Source of the DNA: Escherichia phage 308Ecol101PP
DNA length: 64,000 bases
Sequence record: OR062945.1
Strand: one strand, 5' to 3'
The position numbers and the translations under genes are program-made. The notes under the pieces are model-generated. The model worked only from the letters and a program-made list of their open reading frames with translations, ran no database searches and was not told the DNA's origin. Of this stretch, positions 7,006 through 38,053 are shown in pieces (position 1 is the stretch's first letter; every line of letters starts with the position of its first letter).

Positions 7006-9717
7006 ATGAAAGAATTTTACTTAACGGTTGAACAGATTGGTGATTCAATTTTTGAACGTTACATCGATTCTAACGGCCGTGAACGTACTCGTGAAGTAGA
7101 ATATAAACCATCACTGTTTGCTCATTGTCCAGAAAGTCAGGCTACGAAATATTTCGATATCTACGGTAAGCCGTGTACTCGTAAGTTGTTCGCCAATATG
7201 CGTGATGCCTCCCAATGGATTAAACGCATGGAAGATATCGGACTTGAAGCACTTGGCATGGATGATTTCAAATTGGCGTATTTGTCTGACACTTATAACT
7301 ATGAAATCAAATACGACCATACAAAAATTCGTGTGGCTAACTTCGACATCGAAGTAACATCTCCGGACGGGTTCCCTGAGCCGTCACAAGCAAAACATCC
7401 GATTGATGCTATCACTCATTATGACTCAATTGATGACAGGTTTTATGTATTTGACCTTTTGAATTCTCCATATGGTAATGTAGAAGAATGGTCTATTGAA
7501 ATCGCTGCTAAGCTTCAAGAACAAGGCGGTGATGAAGTTCCATCTGAAATTATCGATAAAATCATTTATATGCCGTTCGATAACGAAAAAGAATTGTTGA
7601 TGGAATATCTCAACTTCTGGCAACAGAAAACTCCTGTCATTTTGACTGGATGGAACGTTGAGTCATTTGATATTCCATATGTGTATAACCGAATCAAGAA
7701 TATTTTTGGCGAATCTACTGCGAAACGTTTATCACCACATCGTAAAACTCGTGTTAAAGTTATCGAAAACATGTATGGTTCTCGTGAAATCATTACATTG
7801 TTCGGTATCTCTGTTCTTGATTACATTGACCTTTACAAAAAATTCTCTTTTACCAATCAACCATCATATTCTCTGGATTACATTTCAGAATTTGAATTGA
7901 ACGTTGGTAAACTGAAATATGACGGCCCTATTTCTAAGCTTCGTGAAAGCAATCACCAACGATATATTTCTTATAACATTATCGACGTGTATCGTGTATT
8001 GCAAATTGATGCTAAACGTCAGTTCATCAACTTGAGTTTGGACATGGGTTATTATGCTAAGATACAGATTCAATCTGTGTTTAGCCCAATTAAAACATGG
8101 GATGCTATTATTTTTAATAGCCTTAAAGAGCAGAACAAGGTGATTCCACAAGGTCGTTCTCACCCGGTTCAACCTTATCCCGGCGCTTTTGTTAAGGAAC
8201 CTATTCCAAATCGATACAAATATGTAATGAGTTTCGACCTTACATCTCTGTATCCAAGTATTATTCGCCAAGTGAATATTAGCCCAGAAACAATAGCAGG
8301 AACGTTTAAAGTAGCTCCACTACATGATTATATTAACGCAATCGCTGAACGTCCTTCTGATGTGTACAGTTGTTCTCCTAACGGCATGATGTATTATAAA
8401 GACCGTGACGGTGTTGTTCCAACTGAAATCACTAAAGTCTTTAATCAACGTAAAGAACATAAAGGTTACATGCTTGCAGCTCAACGTAATGGCGAAATAA
8501 TTAAAGAGGCATTGCATAATCCTAATCTTTCTGTTGACGAACCATTAGATGTTGATTATCGTTTCGACTTCAGTGATGAGATTAAAGAAAAGATTAAAAA
8601 GTTGTCTGCTAAATCTCTTAATGAAATGTTGTTTAGAGCTCAACGTACTGAAGTTGCAGGTATGACTGCCCAAATTAACCGTAAATTGCTTATCAACTCA
8701 CTTTATGGTGCACTTGGCAACGTTTGGTTCCGTTATTATGATTTGCGTAATGCTACTGCAATCACAACATTCGGGCAAATGGCTTTACAGTGGATTGAAC
8801 GTAAAGTTAATGAATATCTGAATGAAGTTTGTGGCACAGAAGGTGAAGCTTTCGTTCTTTATGGTGATACAGACTCTATTTACGTATCTGCTGATAAAAT
8901 TATCGATAAGGTTGGTGAATCTAAATTCCGTGATACCAACCATTGGGTAGACTTCTTAGATAAGTTTGCACGTGAACGTATGGAACCAGCTATTGATAGA
9001 GGTTTCCGTGAAATGTGTGAATACATGAACAATAAACAACACTTAATGTTCATGGACCGAGAAGCTATCGCTGGGCCTCCACTCGGTTCTAAAGGTATTG
9101 GTGGATTCTGGACTGGTAAGAAACGTTATGCATTAAACGTGTGGGATATGGAAGGAACCAGATACGCTGAGCCTAAACTCAAAATCATGGGTCTAGAGAC
9201 TCAGAAATCTTCGACTCCTAAAGCAGTACAGAAAGCTCTTAAAGAATGTATTCGTCGTATGCTTCAAGAAGGTGAAGAATCATTACAAGAATATTTTAAA
9301 GAGTTTGAAAAAGAATTCCGTCAATTGAATTATATTAGCATCGCGTCGGTATCTTCTGCGAATAACATTGCTAAATATGATGTAGGTGGATTCCCTGGTC
9401 CTAAATGCCCGTTCCATATTCGTGGAATTCTGACGTATAACCGGGCTATCAAAGGTAATATCGATGCACCGCAAGTTGTAGAAGGTGAAAAAGTATATGT
9501 TCTGCCTTTACGTGAAGGAAACCCATTCGGTGATAAATGTATCGCATGGCCTTCTGGTACTGAAATCACAGATTTAATTAAAGACGATGTACTTCATTGG
9601 ATGGACTACACTGTTCTCCTTGAGAAGACATTTATTAAACCACTTGAAGGATTCACATCAGCAGCGAAACTCGATTACGAGAAGAAAGCATCTCTGTTCG
9701 ATATGTTCGATTTTTGA
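7006..9717 (+). CDS. 43: gp43 DNA polymerase (family B) with 3-prime to 5-prime exonuclease
   Basis: 903 aa; exo motifs FDIEV, YNIIDV; pol motifs SLYPSII, YGDTDS, KxxxNSxYG; sequence matches RB69 gp43 as I recall it. Confidence 0.98.
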   Translation: MKEFYLTVEQIGDSIFERYIDSNGRERTREVEYKPSLFAHCPESQATKYFDIYGKPCTRKLFANMRDASQWIKRMEDIGLEALGMDDFKLAYLSDTYNYEIKYDHTKIRVANFDIEVTSPDGFPEPSQAKHPIDAITHYDSIDDRFYVFDLLNSPYGNVEEWSIEIAAKLQEQGGDEVPSEIIDKIIYMPFDNEKELLMEYLNFWQQKTPVILTGWNVESFDIPYVYNRIKNIFGESTAKRLSPHRKTRVKVIENMYGSREIITLFGISVLDYIDLYKKFSFTNQPSYSLDYISEFELNVGKLKYDGPISKLRESNHQRYISYNIIDVYRVLQIDAKRQFINLSLDMGYYAKIQIQSVFSPIKTWDAIIFNSLKEQNKVIPQGRSHPVQPYPGAFVKEPIPNRYKYVMSFDLTSLYPSIIRQVNISPETIAGTFKVAPLHDYINAIAERPSDVYSCSPNGMMYYKDRDGVVPTEITKVFNQRKEHKGYMLAAQRNGEIIKEALHNPNLSVDEPLDVDYRFDFSDEIKEKIKKLSAKSLNEMLFRAQRTEVAGMTAQINRKLLINSLYGALGNVWFRYYDLRNATAITTFGQMALQWIERKVNEYLNEVCGTEGEAFVLYGDTDSIYVSADKIIDKVGESKFRDTNHWVDFLDKFARERMEPAIDRGFREMCEYMNNKQHLMFMDREAIAGPPLGSKGIGGFWTGKKRYALNVWDMEGTRYAEPKLKIMGLETQKSSTPKAVQKALKECIRRMLQEGEESLQEYFKEFEKEFRQLNYISIASVSSANNIAKYDVGGFPGPKCPFHIRGILTYNRAIKGNIDAPQVVEGEKVYVLPLREGNPFGDKCIAWPSGTEITDLIKDDVLHWMDYTVLLEKTFIKPLEGFTSAAKLDYEKKASLFDMFDF

Positions 9718-9757
9718 TATAATGACATGGACGGTAAACTAATTAAATGAGAGAAAT

Positions 9758-10393
9758 ATGAAAACTACTCCTATTACTATCGCTATTGACGCAATCATAA
9801 AACAAGCTTCTTCTTTGGCCGCTATGGCCAAAGTAATTAGTCAAAACCCTGCTCGTTATAATGCTATTCTAGAAACTCTTCGACGCCCAGGACTTAGTAA
9901 TTATGAAAGCCGAGTAATTATTACAGGTGTTGGTAAGAATGCTAATATTGCAACTAAAGCTTCTGAGACATTTGCTTCACTTGGTATCCCGAGTATGTAC
10001 TTGAACACTGGGCATTATTCTCACGGTGATGCAGGATTCATTGCGCCTAATGATGTGTTGATTCATATTAGTCGTTCTGGTAAAACTGAAGAAATGATAG
10101 GCGTGGCTAAGCATCTTAAAATGATTCGTCCGAACGTCAAACAGATTCTGTTGCATTGTAACCCGGACATTCCACAAGAATACGAAGCTCTTTTTGATTA
10201 TACGTTCTGTACAGGCATCGCAGTAGAGGTTGATGAGAATTCTCTGGCTCCGACCATGTCCACTACATTGTTGTTAGCGCTTATCGATACGTTTGCTATC
10301 AACCTTTCGTCTGAACGTGGATTTACCTCTAATGACTTCCTTAAGTTCCACCCTGGTGGTGCACTAGGTGCCATGTTACGAGGCGAACAATGA
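9758..10393 (+). CDS. SIS-domain sugar-phosphate isomerase, KdsD/GutQ-type (arabinose-5-phosphate isomerase-like), no CBS domains
   Basis: 211 aa; motifs TGVGKNANIATKASETFASLG, HGDAG, SRSGKTEE typical of KdsD-type SIS domains; not a T4 gene. Confidence 0.7.
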   Translation: MKTTPITIAIDAIIKQASSLAAMAKVISQNPARYNAILETLRRPGLSNYESRVIITGVGKNANIATKASETFASLGIPSMYLNTGHYSHGDAGFIAPNDVLIHISRSGKTEEMIGVAKHLKMIRPNVKQILLHCNPDIPQEYEALFDYTFCTGIAVEVDENSLAPTMSTTLLLALIDTFAINLSSERGFTSNDFLKFHPGGALGAMLRGEQ

Positions 10394-10533
10394 AAGCAAT
10401 AACAATAGGACTTTTACTATTGATGCTTGTCATGACTATCTACTGGAGCTTAACGGCTCCAGTAATGATTCCGACTCTTATAATCGGATGGATTATGATT
10501 GGACTACAAGCAAAGTATGAATGCTTTAACTAG
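10390..10533 (+). CDS. small hydrophobic membrane peptide (47 aa)
   Basis: ATGA overlap with SIS gene stop; MKAITIGLLLLMLVMTIYWSLTAPVMIPTLIIGWIMIGLQ...; below ORF-track cutoff. Confidence 0.4.
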   Translation: MKAITIGLLLLMLVMTIYWSLTAPVMIPTLIIGWIMIGLQAKYECFN

Positions 10534-10574
10534 AATAGTGTACAATACTCCTACTTACCAATGAGGACCACAAC

Positions 10575-12260
10575 ATGAAAAAAGCTGTTATTCTTGGTGC
10601 TGGACTGGCAACTCGTTTGTATCCAATAACGCATCATATTCCTAAGGTGCTTGTTAACTATAAACAAGACACTATTCTGAGCAATTTGTATACAATTTAT
10701 TCTGACCTTGGCGCAGATGAAATTATTGTAGTAGTTCATTCAAAATTTGCTGAAACTGTTCGAGCTTATTGTGAGCAAGAAGGGTTCAATGTGACTATTC
10801 GTACAGTTGATGAAGCGTATGGTTCTGCTTATGCTCTTGCTAAATTGCACAAAGATTTAGACGGCCATAATGTAATTGTTAACTGGTGTGATATTATTCC
10901 TGATTTTGGTTCGTGGTCTTGGAATGTTAACGCAATCTATGTTAAGGGTGACGAATGTCGATATAATTTCGACGGTGAAAATATCACTAATGTAGGTTCA
11001 ACAGGTGGTAATGTTGTAGGAATTTATCAGTTCAAAGACTGGGAATTCTATATGGGTTCTACTGATGAGGAAATTCATGAATACTGCAAAGGACGTGATT
11101 TCGTAGAATTCCTTTACGGCAGCGCATTCAATAAATCAGAGCTTATGAATCTAATTGATTTAGGTGATATGCCTAAACTTGAAAAAGCTCATGAAGTTCG
11201 TGAACTTAATCGTAGTTTTAATGCAGTTGAAATTGGTGAAGAAACTGTAACTAAATTCGCATTAACCGAACAGGGCCGAGCTCTTCAGAAAGATGAGATT
11301 TCATGGTATCTTAAAGTGAAATCAGATTCAGTTCCTCAGTTAGTTTCTGTTAATGAAAATAACTTTGAAATGGAACGCATTAAAGGTAAGCCGGCATTTG
11401 AATATATTAAATCCAAATCAAGTCTTGCTCGTCCACAAATTGTTGATGCAATTTTAGATGCACTGAAATTCAGCACAGACACTTATTTTGTAAGTCCTGA
11501 AACTGTTCGTCGTGATTTCACTAAAGAATTCTATACTAAAGTTATTGATCGTTGTGAAAGTATTCAACCATTGATTGATTCATTTGGTAAAATCACACAT
11601 GTGAACTACACTAAGATTGGGCGTCTGAAGCCAATGTTGAAACAAGCTTTAGAACACCTTATTCGTTATCATAACCGTTCTCAGGGACAGTACTCTGTTA
11701 TTCATGGTGACCCGAACTTCAGTAATACTATGATTACTGATAATGGTGAAGTCAAGTTTATCGACCCTCGTGGATATTTTGGTGAAACCAAGATTTATGG
11801 GCCAAAATTGTATGATGAAGCTAAAGTGCTTTACGCTGTTTCAGGTTATGATGAATTCAACGCTAATCCGACTTGGGGACAGTTTACTATTGATGAAACA
11901 ACTTGTAATGTGACTATTAACATCAATCCGTTAGTTTACAAATATGGAAAGATGAGTTCGTTTAACGAGTATCATCATTTGGCAGTGGCAATTATCTGGA
12001 TTGCATTAGGTGGTTATTTCAAGAATAATCCACTTAAAGCGGTAGCCGCATATTATAAAGGTATGGAACTTCTGACTAAGCAATTACGTAATATGGGCCG
12101 TGTACTTCAGGACGGCACTATTAGTTATGATGTAGCAGAACCTGTAACGGCTACTCTGATTACAAAAAATCCTGGTAAATGGGTACTAACTGATAAAGAA
12201 ACTGGTGTTTCTTATCGTCCAATCGGTGGCGATATCACTCATCAATGGGAACGAATCTAA
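10575..12260 (+). CDS. bifunctional protein: N-terminal sugar-1-phosphate nucleotidyltransferase (RmlA/GalU-like) fused to C-terminal APH/choline-kinase-like sugar kinase
   Basis: 561 aa; N-terminal GAGLATRLYPIT (RmlA signature G-x-G-T-R-L-x-P-I-T) ; C-terminal HGDPNFSNTMI...IDPRGYFG (Brenner motif plus DxxG of kinase-like phosphotransferases). Confidence 0.7.
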   Translation: MKKAVILGAGLATRLYPITHHIPKVLVNYKQDTILSNLYTIYSDLGADEIIVVVHSKFAETVRAYCEQEGFNVTIRTVDEAYGSAYALAKLHKDLDGHNVIVNWCDIIPDFGSWSWNVNAIYVKGDECRYNFDGENITNVGSTGGNVVGIYQFKDWEFYMGSTDEEIHEYCKGRDFVEFLYGSAFNKSELMNLIDLGDMPKLEKAHEVRELNRSFNAVEIGEETVTKFALTEQGRALQKDEISWYLKVKSDSVPQLVSVNENNFEMERIKGKPAFEYIKSKSSLARPQIVDAILDALKFSTDTYFVSPETVRRDFTKEFYTKVIDRCESIQPLIDSFGKITHVNYTKIGRLKPMLKQALEHLIRYHNRSQGQYSVIHGDPNFSNTMITDNGEVKFIDPRGYFGETKIYGPKLYDEAKVLYAVSGYDEFNANPTWGQFTIDETTCNVTININPLVYKYGKMSSFNEYHHLAVAIIWIALGGYFKNNPLKAVAAYYKGMELLTKQLRNMGRVLQDGTISYDVAEPVTATLITKNPGKWVLTDKETGVSYRPIGGDITHQWERI

Positions 12261-12646
12261 TGCACCGTGTAAAAAACATGCTTAATCTTTGTTTTGATGT
12301 CGATGATTGTATAACAGAGTGGAATAACAATCGTGATTACGTGAACTTCAAACCAGACGTCGAAATGGTGTCTGCCATTAATGCCCTGTATGATGCAGGG
12401 CATACCATAACGCTTTACACTGCTCGCGGTATGAAGTCAGTAGGTCCTGGTCGTATAGCAATTGACATTCTCCCAAGTCTGATTCAGAACTTGGCAAACA
12501 TTGGATTGAAGTACCATAATTTGCTAACACATAAACCAGTATATGATTGGATTATCGACGACAAAGCTATGCGTCCTGACGAATTCAAAGCTCTTATGAA
12601 TAAAGGCGAATTCGAAACATTTAAATCATATAAACCGAATCTATAA
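12260..12646 (+). CDS. small cap-less HAD-superfamily phosphatase-like protein
   Basis: 128 aa from ATG 12260 (TAATG overlap; ORF track starts at 12245); motif I FDVDD, motif II LYTAR, Lys (HKP), motif IV WIIDDK. Confidence 0.55.
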   Translation: MHRVKNMLNLCFDVDDCITEWNNNRDYVNFKPDVEMVSAINALYDAGHTITLYTARGMKSVGPGRIAIDILPSLIQNLANIGLKYHNLLTHKPVYDWIIDDKAMRPDEFKALMNKGEFETFKSYKPNL

Positions 12647-12692
12647 TAATTTAAGTAAGACCTGCAAAAACCATCGCATCAATTAACGTGGG

Positions 12693-13868
12693 ATGCAAAA
12701 AAAAAAAATGAATACTTTTAAAATCGGAACGAATTTTGATTTAGCTCTTCTTGATAAAATCGTAGAGCTCAATAAAACTTATCCTAATAGCTTGATAAAC
12801 GAAGTATACGGCTCTACAAGAGAAATGGCTTTTGTAGCAGCCAGACCTGATTTTAGGCTTCCTGACGTTGACAAAAAGATGTTAGAAGATTACGTTAAAC
12901 GTTGTAACGAATTAGGTATTTGCTTTAACTATACACTCAACACGATAAATCCTGGTTCAAAAAGAGAACTAGTTGAGTGGAAGAAGAAAGCTATTCAGGA
13001 TTATGTTCAGTATCTTTGGTCAATAGGCGTATGGCGTATTACTATCGCTAACCCTGTTGTTATGGAAATTGTTCGTGAAGTCAATAAAGACATTGAGATT
13101 GAAGTTTCAACAATTCTACATGTCGATGCTGTAACTCAAATCAAATACTTGCATGACCAATATAATATCAAAAAGGTCTGCTGTGGAATTCATAAGAACC
13201 GTTCAGTTTCTTTCCTGAAACGTGCAGCAGAGTTTTGTAATAAGAACAATATAATATTTGAAGTTCTTGTAAATGAGTTCTGTTCTAATGCTGGTAAAGG
13301 GTACACAACACATTGTAGCTATCGTGACTCTTGCTATATTTTCCATAGCACCGATGTTACAGTAGATGATGCCAAATCCTTAAATGGATATCCAATGCAA
13401 CACTGTATTAAAGCTCGTGATACAGATCCATTTAACTGGTTGAGAACTCGTTTTGTTCGTCCTCAAGATTTGAAACTTTATAATGATATTGGTATCACTC
13501 AATTTAAAGTTTCAGGACGTACAGGTAGCACCGACTACATTTTAAAAGTTCTTGAAGCTTACGCTTCTGAAAAGTTTGAAGGTAATTTGTTGGAATTGTG
13601 GAAGCCTTTAGAGACCATTTTCACTCTTGAAAATGAGACTGAGTTTTCACATACGGTAAATATTGAAACCTCTTTGTTAGACGGCTTTTTAGAAAAAAGG
13701 TGGTTCAAACATCCAGATTTCGATTGTGCTAATGAAATCTGCGGGACGACGTGTACATATTGTGAAAGATATTATAAACGTCAGTTATCTAAAAATGGGT
13801 TATCAGAAAACTCTATATCTATTATTGATATAACTAACTCTGATGACGCTTTGAGGTACCCAGAATGA
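12693..13868 (+). CDS. U32-family (peptidase U32 / UbiU-UbiV / RlhA-like) putative Fe-S protein
   Basis: 391 aa; U32-like blocks (ICFNYTLNT; EVLVNEFCSNAGKGYTTHCSY; FKVSGRTGS resembling the K-I-E-G-R motif); C-terminal CxxxCxxC (CGTTCTYC); alternative start ATG 12708 after an A12 run. Confidence 0.55.
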   Translation: MQKKKMNTFKIGTNFDLALLDKIVELNKTYPNSLINEVYGSTREMAFVAARPDFRLPDVDKKMLEDYVKRCNELGICFNYTLNTINPGSKRELVEWKKKAIQDYVQYLWSIGVWRITIANPVVMEIVREVNKDIEIEVSTILHVDAVTQIKYLHDQYNIKKVCCGIHKNRSVSFLKRAAEFCNKNNIIFEVLVNEFCSNAGKGYTTHCSYRDSCYIFHSTDVTVDDAKSLNGYPMQHCIKARDTDPFNWLRTRFVRPQDLKLYNDIGITQFKVSGRTGSTDYILKVLEAYASEKFEGNLLELWKPLETIFTLENETEFSHTVNIETSLLDGFLEKRWFKHPDFDCANEICGTTCTYCERYYKRQLSKNGLSENSISIIDITNSDDALRYPE

Positions 13869-14026
13869 TTTCTAGAAAAACTTTTAACCACCAACTTAAC
13901 GAAGAGATTTTGACTATTAAAATTAACAGCAACGAACAAATTCTTAAAAAGGCCCTTATGGGCCTGTTTGAAACTAAAGCGGCTAAAGTGATTAAAGAAA
14001 CCTGTTCAACTAGAATACTACGCTGA
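13865..14026 (+). CDS. small hypothetical protein (53 aa)
   Basis: ATGA overlap with preceding stop; below ORF-track cutoff. Confidence 0.3.
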   Translation: MISRKTFNHQLNEEILTIKINSNEQILKKALMGLFETKAAKVIKETCSTRILR

Positions 14027-14105
14027 TGCATTTCTTCATAGTGTTCTTGGAAATATCGATGCTGAAGCTTTACGTTATATCAACATCGCTAAGAAATTCA
14101 AATAA

Positions 14106-14128
14106 GCTTTATGAATTGAGTATATAAT
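14106..14128 (+). promoter_or_regulatory. putative MotA-dependent middle promoter upstream of gene 42 homologue
   Basis: GCTTTA (MotA-box-like) 11 nt upstream of TATAAT. Confidence 0.35.
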
Positions 14129-14146
14129 AACTGTATTGAGGTAAAC

Positions 14147-14863
14147 ATGGGAAAACATAACACAATGAAATATATTAAAGCCGCAGATTTTCAATCCGCA
14201 TTTAAAGCTGTCAATCGTGAAATTTTAGAAAATCCACAGTTCGTTACTGATTCTCGTATTGGACGTTGTAATGAAATTGGGTCTATGACAGTAGTTGTTG
14301 ATACCCCTTCATCATTCAAAATGACCGACCCACGTATTAATCGCATCTCTTATGAATATGCTGAAGATTTCTGGAAATTTATGATTTCTGGTGGTACTGA
14401 TGCAAAAGAAGCATTTAAGGCATATCCTAACGTTGCTAAATTTATTTCTAAACCTAAATCAGACGCTTTGCCTGCAAACTTCAACACTTTCTATGGTCCA
14501 CGAATTGCGGCCCAGTTACCAGCTCTTCTCAAAGAACTTAAAGAGAAACCTAATTCACGAAGAGTTGTGTTTCAAATTCTTGAAAGTTCAGATCAGGCTT
14601 TGCTTGATTCGGATGAAACGCTTGAATATCCATGTACTGACTCAGTGACTTATTATATTCGTGATGGTAAGCTTTATACCCACTGTCATATGCGTTCTCA
14701 GAACTGTGCTGTTGTTATGCAGTTGGATTTTTATCTCCAAGGAAAATTACTTCATTATATCGCTAACGAATGTGGTGTAGAAGTTGGTGATTATACTCAT
14801 ACCATGGTAAGTGCCCATGTGTTTGAACGTGATTTTGATTATGTTAAAGGATTCCTTGACTAA
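14147..14863 (+). CDS. 42: thymidylate-synthase-fold deoxynucleotide hydroxymethylase, gp42 (dCMP hydroxymethylase) homologue
   Basis: 238 aa; NSRRVVFQ, EYPCTDSVTYYIRDGKLYTHCHMRSQN, VSAHVFERDF align with T4 gp42/TS active-site blocks as recalled; T4 gene order. Confidence 0.7.
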   Translation: MGKHNTMKYIKAADFQSAFKAVNREILENPQFVTDSRIGRCNEIGSMTVVVDTPSSFKMTDPRINRISYEYAEDFWKFMISGGTDAKEAFKAYPNVAKFISKPKSDALPANFNTFYGPRIAAQLPALLKELKEKPNSRRVVFQILESSDQALLDSDETLEYPCTDSVTYYIRDGKLYTHCHMRSQNCAVVMQLDFYLQGKLLHYIANECGVEVGDYTHTMVSAHVFERDFDYVKGFLD

Positions 14864-15762
14864 TGGCTATTTTCCGCGTACCTATCTTGAGTATGCGGTC
14901 TTATGAAACTGGACAGTATGCTATCCTTAAGGATGGCAACTTCCAACTTCATTTGCACCGTGCTAATCCGGGTGATGTGATTACATATCCACGTAATGCA
15001 TCTGATATTAAAGAATGCGAACGTCTTTTTCCAGAATTTAAGTTTGTTCCATTATGGTATAAAGATAACGCGTATAACACTCGTAAATATTTCTGGTCTG
15101 AAAATGAATTTGTGGTTGATTCATTAATTGCTTATTATGATTGTGATTTTCTAATCACAGATATCACTGGATATGACGGCGCTTTTGATGTGGAATTCAA
15201 TTTCAATATCACTGCAGACCCTAATAAACCACGTTTTTATATTGACGAATTCTTAAAAACCGACATGTTGTCGGTTAATCGTTCACTTCAAACTACTGTG
15301 TTGAATGAACGTCAAAAAGAAGTGCTGGTTAACGCAGGTGCAGATGGTAATAAGATTATCGTAACCCAGAAAGTTATACGTCCTTCCATCATGCAGCGTC
15401 TTGTAGGTGATTTGGCTCCTATTCATCTAGATGGTATTTTTCATCCATTTCGAATTAGTGACCCGTGCTATCGTTTTGAACAAGTGGTTGAATGTGCAAT
15501 TCAATTAGGTCAACCGCTTTATATAACTGATCCAAATAATAGTTTCGACAGAAATAAGTATCCTGAAGAAGCGCTGATTCGAATTTTTAATCCAACTAAA
15601 ACTGAGTACTATCAAATTCTTAAAGGACGTCCGAAGATTCAATATTTCGAAAATCCTGAAGAAGTATTCCATCCAGGTCTTGGTGAGTTCATCTACTTTA
15701 ATGCTTTAATTTCTTCGCCGTATAATATACCTAAATACGAAGATGTCGTAATCGAGGAATAA
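14863..15762 (+). CDS. hypothetical protein in the position of T4 beta-glucosyltransferase (299 aa), no recognisable similarity to beta-gt
   Basis: TAATG coupled start after gene 42 homologue; no motif recognised. Confidence 0.5.
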   Translation: MAIFRVPILSMRSYETGQYAILKDGNFQLHLHRANPGDVITYPRNASDIKECERLFPEFKFVPLWYKDNAYNTRKYFWSENEFVVDSLIAYYDCDFLITDITGYDGAFDVEFNFNITADPNKPRFYIDEFLKTDMLSVNRSLQTTVLNERQKEVLVNAGADGNKIIVTQKVIRPSIMQRLVGDLAPIHLDGIFHPFRISDPCYRFEQVVECAIQLGQPLYITDPNNSFDRNKYPEEALIRIFNPTKTEYYQILKGRPKIQYFENPEEVFHPGLGEFIYFNALISSPYNIPKYEDVVIEE

Positions 15763-15763
15763 A

Positions 15764-16312
15764 ATGGTTAAAATTATTTTAGTAGATGGCCCGGATAATG
15801 CCGGTAAAACAACTTTCATTAATGACATAATGGAAATTAGTGAAAGATATGTAAAGATTGATTTCCCTAAACGAACAGTTGATGGACGTTTCGATGTTAA
15901 GTCTCGAAATGAAGTTGGCTGTTTCGAAACGATGTTGAATTATTTAGACCCTACTAAGATTTATCTGTTAGACCGTGGATATATTAGTAACTGGGTTTAT
16001 GGACGTATTCGACAAGATGCGGACTCGGTTCTTGACGTTTATGAACAGGATTATGTTCGTCTTTGCCAAAACCATGATGTGTTCACAATTATTTTAACAC
16101 GTAACGAAATGACTGAAAGTTTTGAAGACGACCTTATTACTTTGTCTTCATTCGGTTTTAATACAGTCATTTCATATTTTGAAGAGTTTGCAATTCATAA
16201 CAAAATCCAAACGTATCAATTACTTAATCATGACGGTGCTAACAAAGTTATAGGATTTAATGCAAGCGAACGTAATTATTTGATTACAGAAATTATCAAA
16301 TGGGCTCGTTAA
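15764..16312 (+). CDS. P-loop NTPase, putative nucleoside/nucleotide kinase-like protein
   Basis: 182 aa; Walker A LVDGPDNAGKTT at N-terminus, size typical of dNMP/dNK kinases. Confidence 0.5.
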   Translation: MVKIILVDGPDNAGKTTFINDIMEISERYVKIDFPKRTVDGRFDVKSRNEVGCFETMLNYLDPTKIYLLDRGYISNWVYGRIRQDADSVLDVYEQDYVRLCQNHDVFTIILTRNEMTESFEDDLITLSSFGFNTVISYFEEFAIHNKIQTYQLLNHDGANKVIGFNASERNYLITEIIKWAR

Positions 16313-16330
16313 GAGCCTGTTTAAAGTTTT

Positions 16331-16358
16331 AAATGCTGTATAACCCTTAGTATATAAT
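16331..16358 (+). promoter_or_regulatory. putative middle promoter upstream of uvsX
   Basis: AAATGCTGTA (MotA-box-like) 12 nt upstream of TATAAT. Confidence 0.35.
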
Positions 16359-16411
16359 CGTCTTATCTTTTAAACATGAGTAAAATATAATGATGCCTAT
16401 GGAAAAATACA

Positions 16412-17584
16412 ATGTCTGATTTAAAATCTCGTCTGATTAAAGCTTCTACTTCTAAAATGACTGCAGACTTGACTAAGTCTAAGCTGTTTAATAATCGTGA
16501 TGAAGTCCCTACTCGTATTCCGATGTTGAATATTGCATTAGGTGGTGCACTGAATGCCGGGTTGCAATCAGGCTTAACTATTTTTGCTGCTCCTTCTAAA
16601 CACTTTAAAACGTTGTTTGGGCTGACCATGGTTGCAGCATATATGAAGAAATATAAAGATGCAATTTGTTTGTTCTATGATTCAGAATTTGGTGCTTCAG
16701 AATCTTATTTTCGTTCAATGGGTGTTGATTTAGACCGTGTAGTTCATACTCCTATTCAATCTGTCGAACAACTTAAAGTTGATATGACTAATCAGCTTGA
16801 CGCGATTGAACGTGGTGATAAAGTTATTATCTTTATCGATTCAATCGGTAATACTGCATCTAAGAAAGAAACCGAAGATGCGTTGAACGAGAAAGTCGTA
16901 GGTGATATGTCTCGTGCTAAGGCACTTAAATCTCTTTTCCGTATTGTGACCCCGTATCTGACTATTAAAGATATTCCGTGTGTTGCAATTAACCATACAG
17001 CAATGGAAATCGGCGGATTGTATCCTAAAGAGATTATGGGCGGTGGTACAGGTATTCTTTATTCTGCCAACACGGTATTTTTTATCTCTAAACGTCAGGT
17101 TAAAGAAGGCACAGAATTGACCGGTTATGACTTCACGTTGAAAGCAGAAAAATCTCGAACCGTTAAAGAAAAATCTACTTTCCCAATCACGGTTAATTTT
17201 GATGGTGGTATCGACCCATTCAGTGGCTTGTTAGAAATGGCAACTGAAATTGGTTTTGTAGTTAAGCCTAAAGCCGGGTGGTATGCTCGAGAATTCCTTG
17301 ACGAAGAAACAGGCGAAATGATTCGTGAAGAAAAATCATGGCGTGCTAAAGCTACTGATTGTGTAGAATTCTGGGGACCGTTGTTTAAACACAAACCTTT
17401 CCGAGACGCAATTGAAACTAAATATAAACTAGGTGCTATCTCTTCTATTAAAGAAGTTGATGACGCTGTTAATGACCTTATTAATTGCAAAGCAACAACT
17501 AAAGTTCCGGTTAAAACTTCTGATGCACCGTCTGCAGCAGATATAGAAAACGACCTTGACGAAATGGAAGATTTCGATGAATAA
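16412..17584 (+). CDS. uvsX: UvsX recombinase (RecA/Rad51 family)
   Basis: 390 aa; Walker A-like FAAPSKHFKT, Walker B-like VIIFIDSIGN, acidic C-terminal tail; T4 gene order. Confidence 0.95.
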   Translation: MSDLKSRLIKASTSKMTADLTKSKLFNNRDEVPTRIPMLNIALGGALNAGLQSGLTIFAAPSKHFKTLFGLTMVAAYMKKYKDAICLFYDSEFGASESYFRSMGVDLDRVVHTPIQSVEQLKVDMTNQLDAIERGDKVIIFIDSIGNTASKKETEDALNEKVVGDMSRAKALKSLFRIVTPYLTIKDIPCVAINHTAMEIGGLYPKEIMGGGTGILYSANTVFFISKRQVKEGTELTGYDFTLKAEKSRTVKEKSTFPITVNFDGGIDPFSGLLEMATEIGFVVKPKAGWYAREFLDEETGEMIREEKSWRAKATDCVEFWGPLFKHKPFRDAIETKYKLGAISSIKEVDDAVNDLINCKATTKVPVKTSDAPSAADIENDLDEMEDFDE

Positions 17585-27743: not shown

Positions 27744-28352
27744 ATGTTTATGCCGTATAACGAGTGTGAAATTGAAGAAATGGTTCGTCGTGCTCAAAAC
27801 CCCGAATATCAAGATGTATTGCAGTACGAAATTGATAGTCAATTCAGCGATAATGAACAAAGCGTCCTTTGGCAGTGTATGGAAAACAAGCCAGACTGTA
27901 TTCAACAGGAGTTAAGTTCAATCGTTCGTAGAAATTGGACGTCTTCTGTTCCTGAGACAATGTATCGTGGAATCTCTAAGAAAACTATGGCCACACTCGA
28001 TGATAAAGGCATTGGTAGTATTATTAAATTTGACAGAGTAATGAGCTTCAGCCCAGTGTTCGGTGTAGCGCGTAACTTTGCTTCGTATAATTTTTACGGA
28101 ACATTTAATATGTTCTGCATCAAAGATGCACCATTTGCTTTCAACTTCCGTGAACATATGCTTAATATGATTCTGGCTGCACCATCTTGTGAGTTCAATG
28201 GAGCTTTCCCTGAAGCGACAAGACGGTCTAATGCTAGACTTATATCTGACGAATGTGAATTTATGCTCCCTATAGGGACTACACTGCGTGTAGATTCTAT
28301 TATTCAAGATGGACGTTATACAATCTGGAATCTGTCTATTGTCAGTTACTGA
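27744..28352 (+). CDS. ADP-ribosyltransferase, ModA/ModB-like (R-S-E class), paralogue 2
   Basis: 202 aa; MYRG, SFS, ECEFM motifs; shares N-terminal block (Q..VLW.C...K.D) with paralogue 1. Confidence 0.6.
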   Translation: MFMPYNECEIEEMVRRAQNPEYQDVLQYEIDSQFSDNEQSVLWQCMENKPDCIQQELSSIVRRNWTSSVPETMYRGISKKTMATLDDKGIGSIIKFDRVMSFSPVFGVARNFASYNFYGTFNMFCIKDAPFAFNFREHMLNMILAAPSCEFNGAFPEATRRSNARLISDECEFMLPIGTTLRVDSIIQDGRYTIWNLSIVSY

Positions 28353-28426
28353 CTGAATTGGAATAACCGGATGGAACTCAGAACCATTATAACACATAAA
28401 AAATTAAAGCATTTTATGAAAAAAGA

Positions 28427-28455
28427 GTGTACACTACCTGAGGGCATGATATTAT
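28427..28455 (+). promoter_or_regulatory. early promoter
   Basis: GTGTAC, 17-nt spacer, TATTAT, AAGCTTATC. Confidence 0.5.
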
Positions 28456-28505
28456 AAGCTTATCAGCTAAACGACCTTAACGTCCGTAAGACAGAGGAAA
28501 ATATT

Positions 28506-29252
28506 ATGTTATCAAATAATAAAATTAACAAAATTAATCGTCGTCTTGACCACACCAGAGCTTCTGCGAAGAGACGCTCTAAGGATTTTAACTTAGACTT
28601 TAATTACCTTAAAAACATTCTTGATCAAAAGGTCTGTGCTTACTCAGGTGAATCTTTTAATAACTCTGTTGAAGGTGAGAAATTATCCTTAGAACGTTTT
28701 AATAATGATATAGGCTACATTAAAGGTAATGTTATCCCGGTTAAGAAAAAATATAACACGGCTCGTTCTGATTTAACATTAGAAGAACTTATTGAGAAAC
28801 GCGATGCCATTGCAAGACGTATCGCTAATCCTTCGGCCCGTAAAGTAGAGAAACTTAATCTCGACGAGAAGAAATGGGCCCAAATTAAAAAGGTTTATGG
28901 TACTATTTTAAAAATCCGAGCAAAACGTGAAAATCGTGTTAAGCATATGGCGAACATGATGAAAAATCAACCTTTATCTAACGAATCTAAACTTAGAATT
29001 GTTGCTTTGAAAGCACGCATTAATGGCTCACATCAAGCAGAAGGCCATGAACTTACTAAACTCAACGTTCTTCTTAAAGGCTCTGACTGGAAAACTAAAA
29101 CTAAATTAACTGACGCTGAATCGCTTTTCGATACATATGATAAAGTTATCCAAGGTCTGCAACGTTTTGAAAAGATTGGTTTCATTGGTAAATTAAAATT
29201 GAAACGTGGCTTACCACTTAGCGCATCATTATTCCAACTGATTAAAGGTTAA
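28506..29252 (+). CDS. hypothetical basic protein in the T4 srd position (248 aa)
   Basis: Position between mod genes and dda as for T4 srd; identity not verified. Confidence 0.4.
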   Translation: MLSNNKINKINRRLDHTRASAKRRSKDFNLDFNYLKNILDQKVCAYSGESFNNSVEGEKLSLERFNNDIGYIKGNVIPVKKKYNTARSDLTLEELIEKRDAIARRIANPSARKVEKLNLDEKKWAQIKKVYGTILKIRAKRENRVKHMANMMKNQPLSNESKLRIVALKARINGSHQAEGHELTKLNVLLKGSDWKTKTKLTDAESLFDTYDKVIQGLQRFEKIGFIGKLKLKRGLPLSASLFQLIKG

Positions 29253-29254
29253 TT

Positions 29255-29566
29255 ATGGTTTATGTATATGCAATAGTTTATCGAGATATGGAAGGATTTA
29301 CTGTCCCGGTTCCACTTGATGAGCATCGTCCTGCAGTATTTTTTAGAAAGGATATTGCAGATAAAGTTTTCGATACTTTGAAAACACAGTATAAAACAGA
29401 TTTAAAAATGGGAGTTCTAAGAATGGTTGAAACTCCGCGTAAGTTCTGGTTTAATAAGCTTGAAATGAAACACGTTAAACTAGATGCGGAGACGCAAAGA
29501 TTGTATCAACGAATCCTGGACACAGGCCGTATTGTTAGTATTCCAATTGCAGGGACTTTACGATGA
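29255..29566 (+). CDS. hypothetical protein (103 aa), dda.1 position
   Basis: ORF with SD AAAGG; stop overlaps dda start. Confidence 0.5.
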   Translation: MVYVYAIVYRDMEGFTVPVPLDEHRPAVFFRKDIADKVFDTLKTQYKTDLKMGVLRMVETPRKFWFNKLEMKHVKLDAETQRLYQRILDTGRIVSIPIAGTLR

Positions 29567-30876
29567 CATTTGATGATTTGACTGAAGGCCAGAAAAACGC
29601 CTTCAACGTTGTTATGGAAGCTATTAAAGAAAAGAAACATCATGTAACTATTAATGGACCTGCTGGTACAGGTAAAACAACCCTTACTAGATTCATCGTT
29701 GAAGCCCTTATTTCTTCTGGAGAATCAGGTATTATTTTAGCAGCCCCTACACATGCTGCTAAAAAGGTTCTAAGCAAACTTGCTGGTCAAGAAGCATCGA
29801 CTATTCATAGCATTCTTAAAATCAACCCAACTACATACGAAGAAAACGTATTGTTTGAACAGAAAAAGGTTCCAGACTTAGCCTTGTGTCGTGTACTGTT
29901 ATTTGATGAAGCGTCAATGTGCGACCGTTCTCTGTTTAAAATAATGTTAGCTAGTATCCCTAAATGGTGTACAGTAATTGGAATCGGCGACCGATGCCAG
30001 ATTCGTCCGGTAGACCCAGGCGAATCAACTGCGTATCTAAGTCCTTTCTTCACTCACAAAGACTTCGTGCAATGCAACCTTACAGAAGTTAAACGTAGCA
30101 ATGCACCAATTATTGATGTTGCGACTGATATTCGTAATGGCAAATGGATTTACGATAAAGTAGTTGATGGGCACGGCGTTCATGGATATACAGACCTTAA
30201 ATCGTATATGATGAACTATTTTAACGTCGTTAAAACTCCTGAAGACCTTTTCGAAAATCGAATGATGGCATTCACAAATAAGTCGGTGGACAAGTTAAAT
30301 TCAATTATTCGCCGAAAACTTCTTGAAACAGAAAAACCATTTATTAAAGACGAAGTCATTGTTCTACAAGAGCCATTTACTAAGACATATAAGCTAGACG
30401 GTAAAAATATGACCGAAATGCTTTTCAATAATGGGCAATTCGTTCGTATTCGAGATGCTGTAGAAACGTCTACATTCGTTAAAGCACGTGGTGTTTCAGG
30501 CGAATATATGATACGATACTGGAATCTTACAGTAGAAACATATGGTGATGATGAAGAATACGTCCGAGAGGATATAAAGGTTATTTCTTCTGAAGAAGAG
30601 CTTTATAAATTCAATTTGTTTTTGGCTAAGACCGCAGAAACATACAAATTCTGGAATAAAGGTGGTAAAGCTCCATGGAGCGAATTCTGGGATGCTAAAC
30701 GTATGTTCACTAAGGTGAAGGCACTACCAGTATCAACCTTCCATAAGGCCCAGGGTATGTCTGTTGACACAGCCTTTGTTTATACACCGTGTATCCATTA
30801 TGCCGATTCAGAATTAGCTAAACAGTTATTGTATGTCGGCACAACTCGTGGTCGGTTTGACGTCCATTTTATTTGA
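29563..30876 (+). CDS. dda: Dda DNA helicase (SF1B)
   Basis: 437 aa; Walker A GPAGTGKTT; MTFDDLTEGQKNAFN... and C-terminal YVGTTRGR match T4 Dda as recalled. Confidence 0.9.
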   Translation: MTFDDLTEGQKNAFNVVMEAIKEKKHHVTINGPAGTGKTTLTRFIVEALISSGESGIILAAPTHAAKKVLSKLAGQEASTIHSILKINPTTYEENVLFEQKKVPDLALCRVLLFDEASMCDRSLFKIMLASIPKWCTVIGIGDRCQIRPVDPGESTAYLSPFFTHKDFVQCNLTEVKRSNAPIIDVATDIRNGKWIYDKVVDGHGVHGYTDLKSYMMNYFNVVKTPEDLFENRMMAFTNKSVDKLNSIIRRKLLETEKPFIKDEVIVLQEPFTKTYKLDGKNMTEMLFNNGQFVRIRDAVETSTFVKARGVSGEYMIRYWNLTVETYGDDEEYVREDIKVISSEEELYKFNLFLAKTAETYKFWNKGGKAPWSEFWDAKRMFTKVKALPVSTFHKAQGMSVDTAFVYTPCIHYADSELAKQLLYVGTTRGRFDVHFI

Positions 30877-36952: not shown

Positions 36953-38053
36953 ATGAAAGTTATGTTTATCCCATCTCGCGCAGTCCCATTTAATCCTGAC
37001 CGTGTACAAGGTGGTCTTGAAGCAGTACATTTAAATGTGTTGAAATATCTTGTGTCCATCGGTGCTGATATTGATTATATCGGCTTTGATAATGACACGT
37101 TTGGTGACTGGAAAGTTACACACCATCCTGTTGGTCATCTGACTAAATTTAGTCTAGGTATGAGTTATACTATGGCTCGTAAGATTGTTGAACTAGCCGG
37201 CATCCATGAATACGATTTTGTTGTTACTATGGAACCGACTAAACTAACCGTTCAGGCAATTAAAGACGCAGGTCTCTCTAAAGTTCATAAGAATTTTATG
37301 GCAACACCATTTGAACCGGTATCTCGTGGCATTGTTCAAATTTGGGACCAGACTATTCAAATTCATAAGAATGGTGGTAAGAGTTATGCTCCTACTAAAG
37401 CCTTCCGTGAATTTGAACGCAAATATTGTTATATGACTTCAGGTCTGACTGACAAAATTGATTATGATTATTGGCGAGCAAATCCGTTGTTTGAAGCCGA
37501 AGATTATCCGGTTATTTGTTTGAATGAGAAACCTGAAGTTCTTCCGGCGACTGATCTGATTATTAGTGCACAACGTTATGACACTAAAATGCGTCGTACT
37601 GATGTTGCTCTTGAAGCGATTAAAGCACTAGGCGAAAATGGTGTAGGATACTGTCCAAGCAAATGGGCACCACCAGCTAAATATCCTGTTATTATTGATG
37701 CTCCACACAGTGAAATCATGGAACGTCTTAAAACAGCTAAAGCGCTTATTAATACGTGTCCTGACACAGGTACGGTAGAGAATAGTTCTATTGAAGCCAT
37801 CTCTAAAGGTGTCCCTGTAATCCAGTTAGTTTTTAAGGATTATCCTCATGCGACATTCGAATACGACCCAGATACTGTGCGTGTAGAAATTGATTCCTCT
37901 ACTCCTAAGAAAGAAGTAGTTGCGCTTTACACAAAAGCTGTATTAGAATTCACTGACACATACGAAGCTCGAGTTAAACGTGCTGAAGCAGTATGGAAGA
38001 AGTATAACCGAGATGCAGTTGTTGCGATGTGGGATAAAATCTTCACAGCGTAA
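36953..38053 (+). CDS. GT-B fold glycosyltransferase (GT4-like), candidate DNA hydroxymethylcytosine glycosyl (pentosyl) transferase
   Basis: 366 aa; C-terminal GT-B donor-binding pattern CPDTGTVENSSIEAISKGVPVI (E-x7-E); located between gene 39 and rIIA. Confidence 0.6.
   Translation: MKVMFIPSRAVPFNPDRVQGGLEAVHLNVLKYLVSIGADIDYIGFDNDTFGDWKVTHHPVGHLTKFSLGMSYTMARKIVELAGIHEYDFVVTMEPTKLTVQAIKDAGLSKVHKNFMATPFEPVSRGIVQIWDQTIQIHKNGGKSYAPTKAFREFERKYCYMTSGLTDKIDYDYWRANPLFEAEDYPVICLNEKPEVLPATDLIISAQRYDTKMRRTDVALEAIKALGENGVGYCPSKWAPPAKYPVIIDAPHSEIMERLKTAKALINTCPDTGTVENSSIEAISKGVPVIQLVFKDYPHATFEYDPDTVRVEIDSSTPKKEVVALYTKAVLEFTDTYEARVKRAEAVWKKYNRDAVVAMWDKIFTA

Follow-up and report, generated by a model that had tools for sequence, protein, structure and literature searches.

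A phage nucleotidyltransferase–kinase fusion with a probable role in UDP-D-arabinofuranose synthesis

Which sugar does a phage activate with a protein that joins a nucleotidyltransferase to a kinase, and does that single chain suffice for the whole task? The question is raised by a gene at positions 10575..12260 (+ strand) of a 64,000-nucleotide (nt) stretch of the genome of Escherichia phage 308Ecol101PP (OR062945.1), referred to here in its entirety as the window. An original prediction, made from the letters of the window, proposed a one-protein salvage route from free sugar to a nucleoside diphosphate (NDP)-sugar and held that sugar and nucleotide specificity could not be read. We consider it very probable that the product is a bifunctional enzyme responsible for steps 2 and 4 in a four-step phage route to uridine diphosphate (UDP)-D-arabinofuranose. 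The open reading frame (ORF), the folds of both halves, the conservation of catalytic residues, orthology to a phage RB69 protein, genomic context, and fusion and neighbourhood patterns were established in the present analysis; which sugar and which nucleotide are used, and that the kinase acts before the phosphatase and the transferase last, come from the literature, in which the biochemistry, as related in PMC13326640, belongs to AfhE and AfhF of phage HY126.

The 561-residue protein and its RB69 orthologue

The gene is a single ATG-initiated ORF of 561 amino acids (aa) with exactly the boundaries that had been predicted, preceded by a GAGGA Shine–Dalgarno sequence 6 nt from the ATG at 10575 (12 nt when counted from its first base). 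All three motifs quoted in the original prediction lie in its translation: GAGLATRLYPIT at aa 8–19 (nt 10596–10631), HGDPNFSN at aa 377–384 (nt 11703–11726) and DPRGYFG at aa 397–403 (nt 11763–11783). The source phage is a Mosigvirus, a T4-like member of the RB69-like T-even phages. Positions 9700–13900 were 99.1% identical to Escherichia phage F2, and at least 80% of this region was covered in 152 phage records. The 561-aa protein was found in 373 phage records, with at least 80% of its length covered in 363 of them, and the protein of Shigella phage phi25-307 is 100% identical to it. The motifs and this distribution go well beyond what chance would give.

The cluster formed at 90% identity around the window protein includes RB69ORF053c, which matches 217 of its first 218 residues. 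At the nucleotide level, the ORF was 97.6% identical to RB69 28094–29780, with one extra C in the RB69 reference; deleting this C from the RB69 sequence yielded a 561-aa protein that differs from the window protein at three positions (558 of 561 aa identical). Resequencing of the RB69 region identified the extra C as a sequencing error (Thomas et al. 2018, PMC6024577), and the same work established that ORF053c and ORF052c together make up one protein of 561 residues, 'ORF53_52c', which was expressed as a single band, and suggested UDP-arabinose formation as its role. RB69 gp52:53 has since been divided into the same two domains by Lee et al. 2026 (PMC13326640). By these identities, the window protein is the Mosigvirus orthologue of RB69 ORF53_52c/gp52:53, with the same neighbours and nothing material to distinguish the two, and we list it as a probable bifunctional AfhE-type enzyme on the basis of the ORF and this orthology. 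The gene, the domains and the role have thus been published already (RB69 in 2018, the domains in 2026 and the AfhE biochemistry in 2026), so the window gene itself brings no new biology.

A nucleotidyltransferase half and a kinase half

The first ~205 residues (10575..11189, + strand) form a sugar-1-phosphate nucleotidyltransferase domain, recognized by its signature and its invariant residues. The signature G-x-G-x-[TS]-R-[LM]-x-P-x-[TS]-x(3)-P-K is satisfied by GAGLATRLYPITHHIPK at aa 8–24, and the Pfam NTP_transferase family (PF00483) was passed with 39.1 bits against a cut-off of 21.2 (E = 8.5e-10, residues 3–99), in an alignment that spans only positions 1–101 of the 245 in the profile. 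Residues G10, R14, K24, D106, D195, G197 and D198 were invariant in 45 homologues reaching down to 29% identity, and G10, R14, K24, D106, D195 and D198 were invariant also in 15 multidomain relatives. When a profile built from the 45-sequence family was compared with the PDB, the best match for the N-terminal domain was HddC, a heptose-1-phosphate guanylyltransferase (E = 9.5e-14, versus 2.3e-11 for LicC); MurU was among the best structural matches. The whole domain has a nucleotidyltransferase fold, and the RmlA-like assignment of the original prediction is therefore upheld by Pfam, profile and structure matches as an RmlA/MurU/LicC-type fold. As reported in PMC13326640, AfhE is specific for UDP.

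Database names point elsewhere. Most of the 373 phage records name the protein 'hypothetical', 'GlmU' or 'nucleotidyl transferase', and several Mosigvirus GenBank records carry the product name 'bifunctional protein GlmU'. A GlmU-type bifunctional enzyme, or a mannose-1-phosphate guanylyltransferase, would agree with these names and with weak matches to the NCBIfam models GlmU and Arch_glmU (residues 3–109), but GlmU-type matches were confined to the first ~109 residues at 15–52 bits against cut-offs of 292–718, and the C-terminal half is a kinase fold rather than a left-handed beta-helix acetyltransferase. We see virtually no chance that either function is correct. GlmU itself was rejected by domain content, its models matching residues 3–106 only (15–23 bits against cut-offs of 367–718), and the labels GlmU, mannose-1-phosphate guanylyltransferase and 'glycosyltransferase' were likewise set aside as reflecting similarity of the N-terminal domain only; the GlmU annotation arose because the name was transferred from the shared transferase domain. 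Orthologues of the phosphatase encoded immediately downstream are widely named 'phosphoheptose isomerase' (PHROG 1238, RefSeq records). Both this name and 'bifunctional protein GlmU' are wrong on domain content and should be replaced, and annotation of the transferase–kinase and neighbouring phosphatase records is the practical value of the present work.

The kinase domain extends from residue ~206 to ~510 (11190..12104, + strand) and is assigned to the APH/choline-kinase fold from its catalytic motifs and structural matches. It contains the Brenner motif H-x-D-x(4)-N (H377-G-D379-PNFS-N384) and a DFG-equivalent, D397-P-R-G; K227, the candidate beta3 lysine, falls in a predicted strand (224–229) and E241, the candidate alphaC glutamate, in a predicted helix (232–247). 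Residues K227, E241, D379, N384 and D397 were invariant in the 45 homologues, and in the 15 multidomain relatives K227, D379, N384 and D397 were again invariant and E241 was kept in at least 90%. The active sites thus look intact in both halves. Pfam kinase matches of the window protein were sub-threshold (Fructosamin_kin at 17.1 bits versus 22.4, and also EcKL and RIO1), and a relative at 44% identity (P0051) cleared the Pfam APH cut-off (26.6 versus 23.2); the window kinase is a divergent member of the clan that lies outside the Pfam APH family as drawn. A phmmer search of the PDB with the window protein returned transferase matches only and no kinase match. Because sequence-only detection of the kinase fold failed, structure prediction was required.

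AlphaFold2 models reached predicted local distance difference test (pLDDT) values of 93.7 and 93.9, the latter for a separate model of residues 206–561. With the full-length model, Foldseek gave only N-terminal-domain matches among the 50 matches listed, and the model of residues 206–561 matched the aminoglycoside phosphotransferase APH(2'')-IIa (3ham, E = 8.2e-8), and also LicA, macrolide phosphotransferases and kinases acting on choline and ethanolamine. The model has a bilobal kinase fold, and its matches to APH, choline-kinase and sugar-kinase structures sustain the earlier call of a kinase of the NahK/AmgK/LicA kind. The structural matches published for RB69 gp52:53 (4y7t, 1jyk and 3ham; PMC13326640 Table 1) are the same as those found here. 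Distant homologues cover ~87–90% of the window protein and stop near residue 500, leaving a C-terminal tail of ~50 aa (12105..12257, + strand) that is confined to the T4-like phage clade and is modelled with lower confidence (pLDDT 79–87).

LicC and LicA were the best or near-best structural matches of the two halves, which raises the question of whether the protein is a LicC–LicA-type choline kinase and phosphocholine cytidylyltransferase, or activates some other compound that is not a sugar, for instance an alcohol like inositol, or a phosphonate. In the LicCA fusion attributed to Treponema denticola, the fold order is the same. Identity to LicC and LicA was only 12–20%, however, the family profile favoured HddC over LicC, and the genomic context differs: the neighbours of the window gene code for an arabinose-5-phosphate isomerase, glycosyltransferases and a 5-hydroxy-deoxycytidine monophosphate (5-hydroxy-dCMP) synthase, neither a choline transporter nor LicD is among them, and RB69-type DNA contains arabinose, not phosphocholine. 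We give a choline-type substrate almost no weight, and return to the sugar-activating enzyme.

A proposed four-step route to UDP-D-arabinofuranose

The gene lies between phage genes for both of the activities that would complete such a pathway. Upstream is a SIS-domain D-arabinose-5-phosphate isomerase (9758..10393, + strand), the orthologue of RB69 gp55, recognized by Pfam (SIS, E = 1.7e-10), NCBIfam, PHROG 5670 and synteny with RB69; its NCBIfam matches to KpsF/GutQ (E = 2e-32) and KdsD (E = 1e-30) were below cut-off because the protein is without CBS domains. Downstream is a small HAD-type phosphatase (12260..12646, + strand), the RB69 gp51 orthologue and AfhF counterpart, supported by its match to the capsule-biosynthesis phosphatase family TIGR01689 in NCBIfam (E = 4e-13, below cut-off), by a DVDD motif and by the start annotated in relatives; this start overlaps the stop codon of the transferase–kinase gene, and an alternative in-frame start lies at 12245. 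Farther along are a thymidylate-synthase homologue (14147..14863, + strand; NCBIfam and PHROG thymidylate synthase), the orthologue of RB69 gp48, a 5-hydroxy-dCMP synthase whose activity has been demonstrated experimentally (PMC13326640), and two putative DNA arabinosyltransferases. The first is a glycosyltransferase orthologous to RB69 gp46:47 (14863..15762, + strand; PHROG 3891, synteny and PMC13326640 Table 1) and the second is the orthologue of RB69 gp3/ORF003c (36953..38053, + strand; 99.2% identity over 366 aa by tblastn), assigned as an arabinosyltransferase in PMC6024577 and PMC13326640. The window protein thus has the two-domain transferase–kinase architecture of AfhE, and the isomerase, phosphatase, 5-hydroxy-dCMP synthase and glycosyltransferases of an AfhE-type cluster are all present (genes at 9758, 12260, 14147, 14863 and 36953).

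We propose that the adjacent SIS isomerase would convert host ribulose-5-phosphate to D-arabinose-5-phosphate (step 1), and that the C-terminal APH-fold kinase would then use adenosine triphosphate to phosphorylate the anomeric C1 hydroxyl, yielding arabinofuranose-1,5-bisphosphate (step 2). The HAD phosphatase, probably translationally coupled to the transferase–kinase gene, would take off the 5-phosphate (step 3), and the N-terminal nucleotidyltransferase would combine arabinofuranose-1-phosphate with uridine triphosphate (UTP) to give UDP-arabinofuranose (UDP-Araf) and pyrophosphate (step 4). The two phage glycosyltransferases would spend UDP-Araf on arabinosylating 5-hydroxycytosine of the phage DNA, the base being supplied as 5-hydroxy-dCMP by the ThyA homologue (gp48), and the modified DNA would be protected from host nucleases.

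The biochemical support for this scheme comes from phage HY126. According to PMC13326640, citing He et al. 2026, AfhE is a D-arabinose-5-phosphate kinase as well as a UDP-D-arabinose pyrophosphorylase; in the text of that account, AfhE converts Araf5P to Araf1,5P and AfhF, described there as a Mg-dependent phosphatase acting on the bisphosphate, then dephosphorylates the product. The same account equates AfhE and AfhF with RB69 gp52:53 and gp51. AfhE is thus the counterpart of the window protein by the statement of PMC13326640, and its biochemistry, which belongs to AfhE and not to the window orthologue, probably holds for the latter as well. The DNA of RB69 and of Mosigvirus NP carries arabinosylated 5-hydroxycytosine (PMC13326640, PMC13390438), and because the whole cluster is 97–99% identical, the same modification is expected in the source phage. 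The orthologue TH1_060 of Shewanella phage Thanatos is 54% identical to the window protein and is essential for that phage (PMC12838424). The original prediction held that specificity could not be read; with context and literature combined, we infer D-arabinofuranose and UDP.

These sources also bear on how much of the proposed salvage route stands. Kinase and pyrophosphorylase do occupy one chain whose end product is an NDP-sugar, as had been predicted. The notion that this one protein salvages a free sugar is not supported, as the gene is flanked by a phage gene for arabinose-5-phosphate isomerase and by one for a phosphatase, and as AfhE, according to PMC13326640, phosphorylates arabinose-5-phosphate, with a separate phosphatase acting between its two half-reactions. 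Given the phage isomerase, the AfhE substrate and the separate phosphatase, the route is one of de novo synthesis from ribulose-5-phosphate that takes three proteins.

The order of the kinase and phosphatase steps has one competitor, in which arabinose-5-phosphate is dephosphorylated at the outset, or arabinose enters from outside, and the kinase then phosphorylates free D-arabinose at C1 before the transferase acts. The two domains would then catalyse consecutive steps, as in AmgK/MurU or FKP, which is the model of the original prediction. Consecutive-step fusions are the commoner pattern, and the nearest solved kinases by fold use unphosphorylated choline, aminoglycosides, glucosamine, maltose or fructosamine. 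Residue R399 within D397-P-R399-G is nonetheless invariant, as are R213, K322, R326, K417 and K488, and these basic residues might accord with a sugar phosphate, an anionic substrate; at the position equivalent to R399, choline kinases carry an acidic residue. The published record is itself divided: Table 1 of PMC13326640 reads 'Phosphorylates Ara to Araf1p' and 'dephosphorylates Araf5p to Ara', whereas its text, citing He et al. 2026, has AfhE acting on Araf5P before AfhF. We regard the free-arabinose order as improbable. Salvage is in any case opposed by the phage's possession of its own arabinose-5-phosphate isomerase, because of which the route is de novo under either order.

Several results weigh against the assignment of steps 2 and 4 to the window protein. 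On the side of the fold, the kinase half of the window protein was below every Pfam gathering threshold, with no PF01636 match; kinase matches of the 45-sequence profile in the PDB were marginal, with RIO2 at E = 0.05; and the Foldseek template modelling scores of the kinase domain were modest (0.42–0.54). On the side of function, the enzymology, as far as PMC13326640 relates it, was done on HY126 AfhE and AfhF, and the substrate order comes from that one secondary account, the table of which lists the older order, phosphatase first and kinase on free arabinose. The paper in Nucleic Acids Research terms the proteins 'analogous', and the link between AfhE and RB69 gp52:53 is the statement of PMC13326640. 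Finally, purified TH1_060 formed no NDP-sugar from xylose-1-phosphate (PMC12838424), a result that also fits specificity for another sugar.

The proposed pathway has a close parallel outside phages. In heptose synthesis, the successive steps are carried by GmhA (a SIS isomerase), HldE or HddA (kinase), GmhB (a HAD phosphatase) and HldE or HddC (nucleotidyltransferase). The ADP- and GDP-heptose pathways share the four-step logic of a SIS isomerase, an anomeric kinase producing a bisphosphate, a distal HAD phosphatase and nucleotidyl transfer, and HldE likewise fuses steps 2 and 4 and leaves the phosphatase separate, with the domain order reversed relative to the window protein. The kinase fold is APH/protein-kinase-like here and PfkB-type in HldE or GHMP in HddA, the HldE transferase belongs to the cytidylyltransferase (HIGH-motif) class and the window transferase to the RmlA class, and the sugar is a C5 furanose here and a C7 heptose there. 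A Pfam scan of the window protein (E ≤ 0.01) gave no PfkB, GHMP or CTP_transf_like match, and its structural matches are of other folds than those of HldE, in agreement with the earlier view that the protein is analogous but not homologous to HldE and FKP. That view had placed HldE with the GHMP kinases, a slip, as its kinase is of the PfkB/ribokinase type. The likeness to GmhA/HldE/GmhB is closer than had been seen, with the same sequence of steps on unrelated folds.

Both folds of the window protein recur in NahK and in AmgK/MurU, which serve MurNAc recycling in Pseudomonas: an anomeric sugar kinase of the APH type goes with a minimal RmlA-type uridylyltransferase. AmgK and MurU are separate proteins that catalyse consecutive steps on an unphosphorylated sugar in a salvage route; the window protein is fused, its substrate would be a sugar-5-phosphate and a phosphatase step would intervene, if it behaves as PMC13326640 reports for AfhE. 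Domain order resembles that of FKP/AFKP80, and here the comparison is with another single chain.

FKP, an L-fucokinase/GDP-fucose pyrophosphorylase, and AFKP80, the arabino/fucokinase-pyrophosphorylase of Leishmania, combine kinase and pyrophosphorylase in one chain with the transferase N-terminal, and D-arabinose is among the sugars that the Leishmania enzyme activates. The kinase of FKP is of the GHMP type, and FKP serves free-sugar salvage with GDP and the pyranose form. UDP-D-arabinofuranose is an unusual sugar nucleotide. As the source of the activated sugar for 5-hydroxycytosine arabinosylation, the enzyme would supply a DNA hypermodification that, per the cited literature, blocks many restriction enzymes and alters sensitivity to CRISPR and type IV defences. 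The Shewanella phage orthologue is essential, and these properties are relevant to phage therapy and engineering.

Relatives beyond T4-like phages and the neighbourhood of the gene

The points of interest that remain are four-domain fusions on giant-virus-like contigs and in a Ceratiomyxa transcriptome, recurrent replacement of the phosphatase and a U32-family gene in the cluster. The original prediction had called the fusion unusual, which it is not within its own family. A search with the kinase domain returned 1,260 representative clusters at E ≤ 1e-3, and among the best 150 of these, 84 were transferase–kinase proteins with the same N-terminal domain, 15 were long fusions and 13 were apparently stand-alone; with the 373 phage records, these counts make the transferase–kinase fusion the commonest arrangement within its family. 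Among the relatives were single chains of 912–955 aa with the order HAD–SIS–NTP_transferase–kinase, 29–35% identical to the window protein and retaining all its catalytic residues. They include P0084 (L004 8001–10781), with MutS with HNH, RNA polymerase Rpb2 and Rpb10 as neighbours; P0109 (L012 5545–8283), beside SNF2, Peptidase_C48 and asparagine synthase; P0092 (L011 14–2854); and P0091, from a transcriptome of the slime mould Ceratiomyxa fruticulosa. Giant-virus-type genes stood beside the fusion in two of the three contexts (L004 and L012), which suggests that eukaryotic giant viruses encode the whole pathway as one polypeptide.

A phosphatase gene adjoins the transferase–kinase gene in five phage lineages, and its type varies. 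Thanatos-1, the window and Enterococcus phage 9183 have a small HAD protein there (in phage 9183, L008 6618–6962, upstream of the transferase–kinase gene). A 350-kb phage contig has a Hydrolase_3 (Cof-type HAD) neighbour instead (L002 9557–10111), and Tenacibaculum phage PTm5 has one that carries the annotation histidine phosphatase (L007 8571–9275); in the four-domain fusions, the phosphatase part is a HAD_2 domain. It seems that the phosphatase step has been kept and the enzyme that carries it out exchanged. Adjacency of a ThyA homologue to the transferase–kinase gene was kept in four of these divergent phages. The four-domain fusions, the flanking phosphatases, the ThyA adjacency and the TH1_060 data thus support the linkage of the pathway independently. 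A broader proposal, which we hold tentatively and think somewhat more likely wrong than right, is that the transferase–kinase pair forms the conserved centre of a four-step NDP-pentofuranose pathway, modular in build, which extends well beyond T4-like phages to the ~890–1010-aa giant-virus and slime-mould fusions, with the phosphatase step filled independently by at least four types of enzyme. In that case, eukaryotic giant viruses would likewise be supplied with UDP-D-arabinofuranose, or a closely related compound, for their glycans or their DNA. In our literature search we found no description of this distribution of four-domain fusions and phosphatase replacement.

Gene order in the window is that of RB69 from gp56 to gp45: polymerase, SIS isomerase, small ORF, transferase–kinase, HAD phosphatase, U32 protein, small ORF and ThyA homologue, then glycosyltransferase, nucleotide kinase and UvsX. 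The polymerase, which lies upstream of 10575..12260 in the ORF list, is gp43, a DNA polymerase of family B. A 47-aa hydrophobic ORF (10390..10533, + strand; MKAITIGLLLLMLVMTIYWSL...), RB69 gp54, separates the isomerase gene from the transferase–kinase gene; it is hypothetical in relatives and may encode a small membrane protein. A promoter and terminator scan of 9600–16500 found none above chance (21 promoter-like sites versus 28.7 expected), so no operon boundaries can be claimed. The Thanatos protein TH1_063 (L006 9961–10863) is a 47%-identical orthologue of the window glycosyltransferase at 14863..15762 and, according to PMC12838424, makes UDP-xylose in vitro when given UTP and xylose-1-phosphate; such an activity is unexpected of a GT-B-like glycosyltransferase and at odds with the part ascribed to RB69 gp46:47.

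Inside the 5-hydroxycytosine/arabinose cluster also lies a Peptidase_U32-family protein of 391 aa (12693..13868, + strand; Pfam E = 6.6e-11), the orthologue of RB69 gp50, with a weak match to UbiU (E = 5e-4). The U32 family includes the O2-independent hydroxylases RlhA (5-hydroxycytidine in 23S rRNA), TrhP (5-hydroxyuridine in tRNA) and UbiU/UbiV. A search of the PDB by sequence found no relative of the window U32 protein, our literature search found nothing linking U32 proteins with phage hydroxycytosine, and the gene is absent from the transferase–kinase neighbourhoods of the 350-kb contig, phage PTm5 and phage 9183 (L002, L007 and L008). For RB69 gp50, Table 1 of PMC13326640 has no more than the label 'sugar or heterocycle reductase', without discussion in the text. 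The protein is 79.5% identical in Shewanella phage Thanatos-1, and in a gut phage it could provide an anaerobic route to 5-hydroxycytosine beside the O2- and flavin-dependent ThyA homologue.

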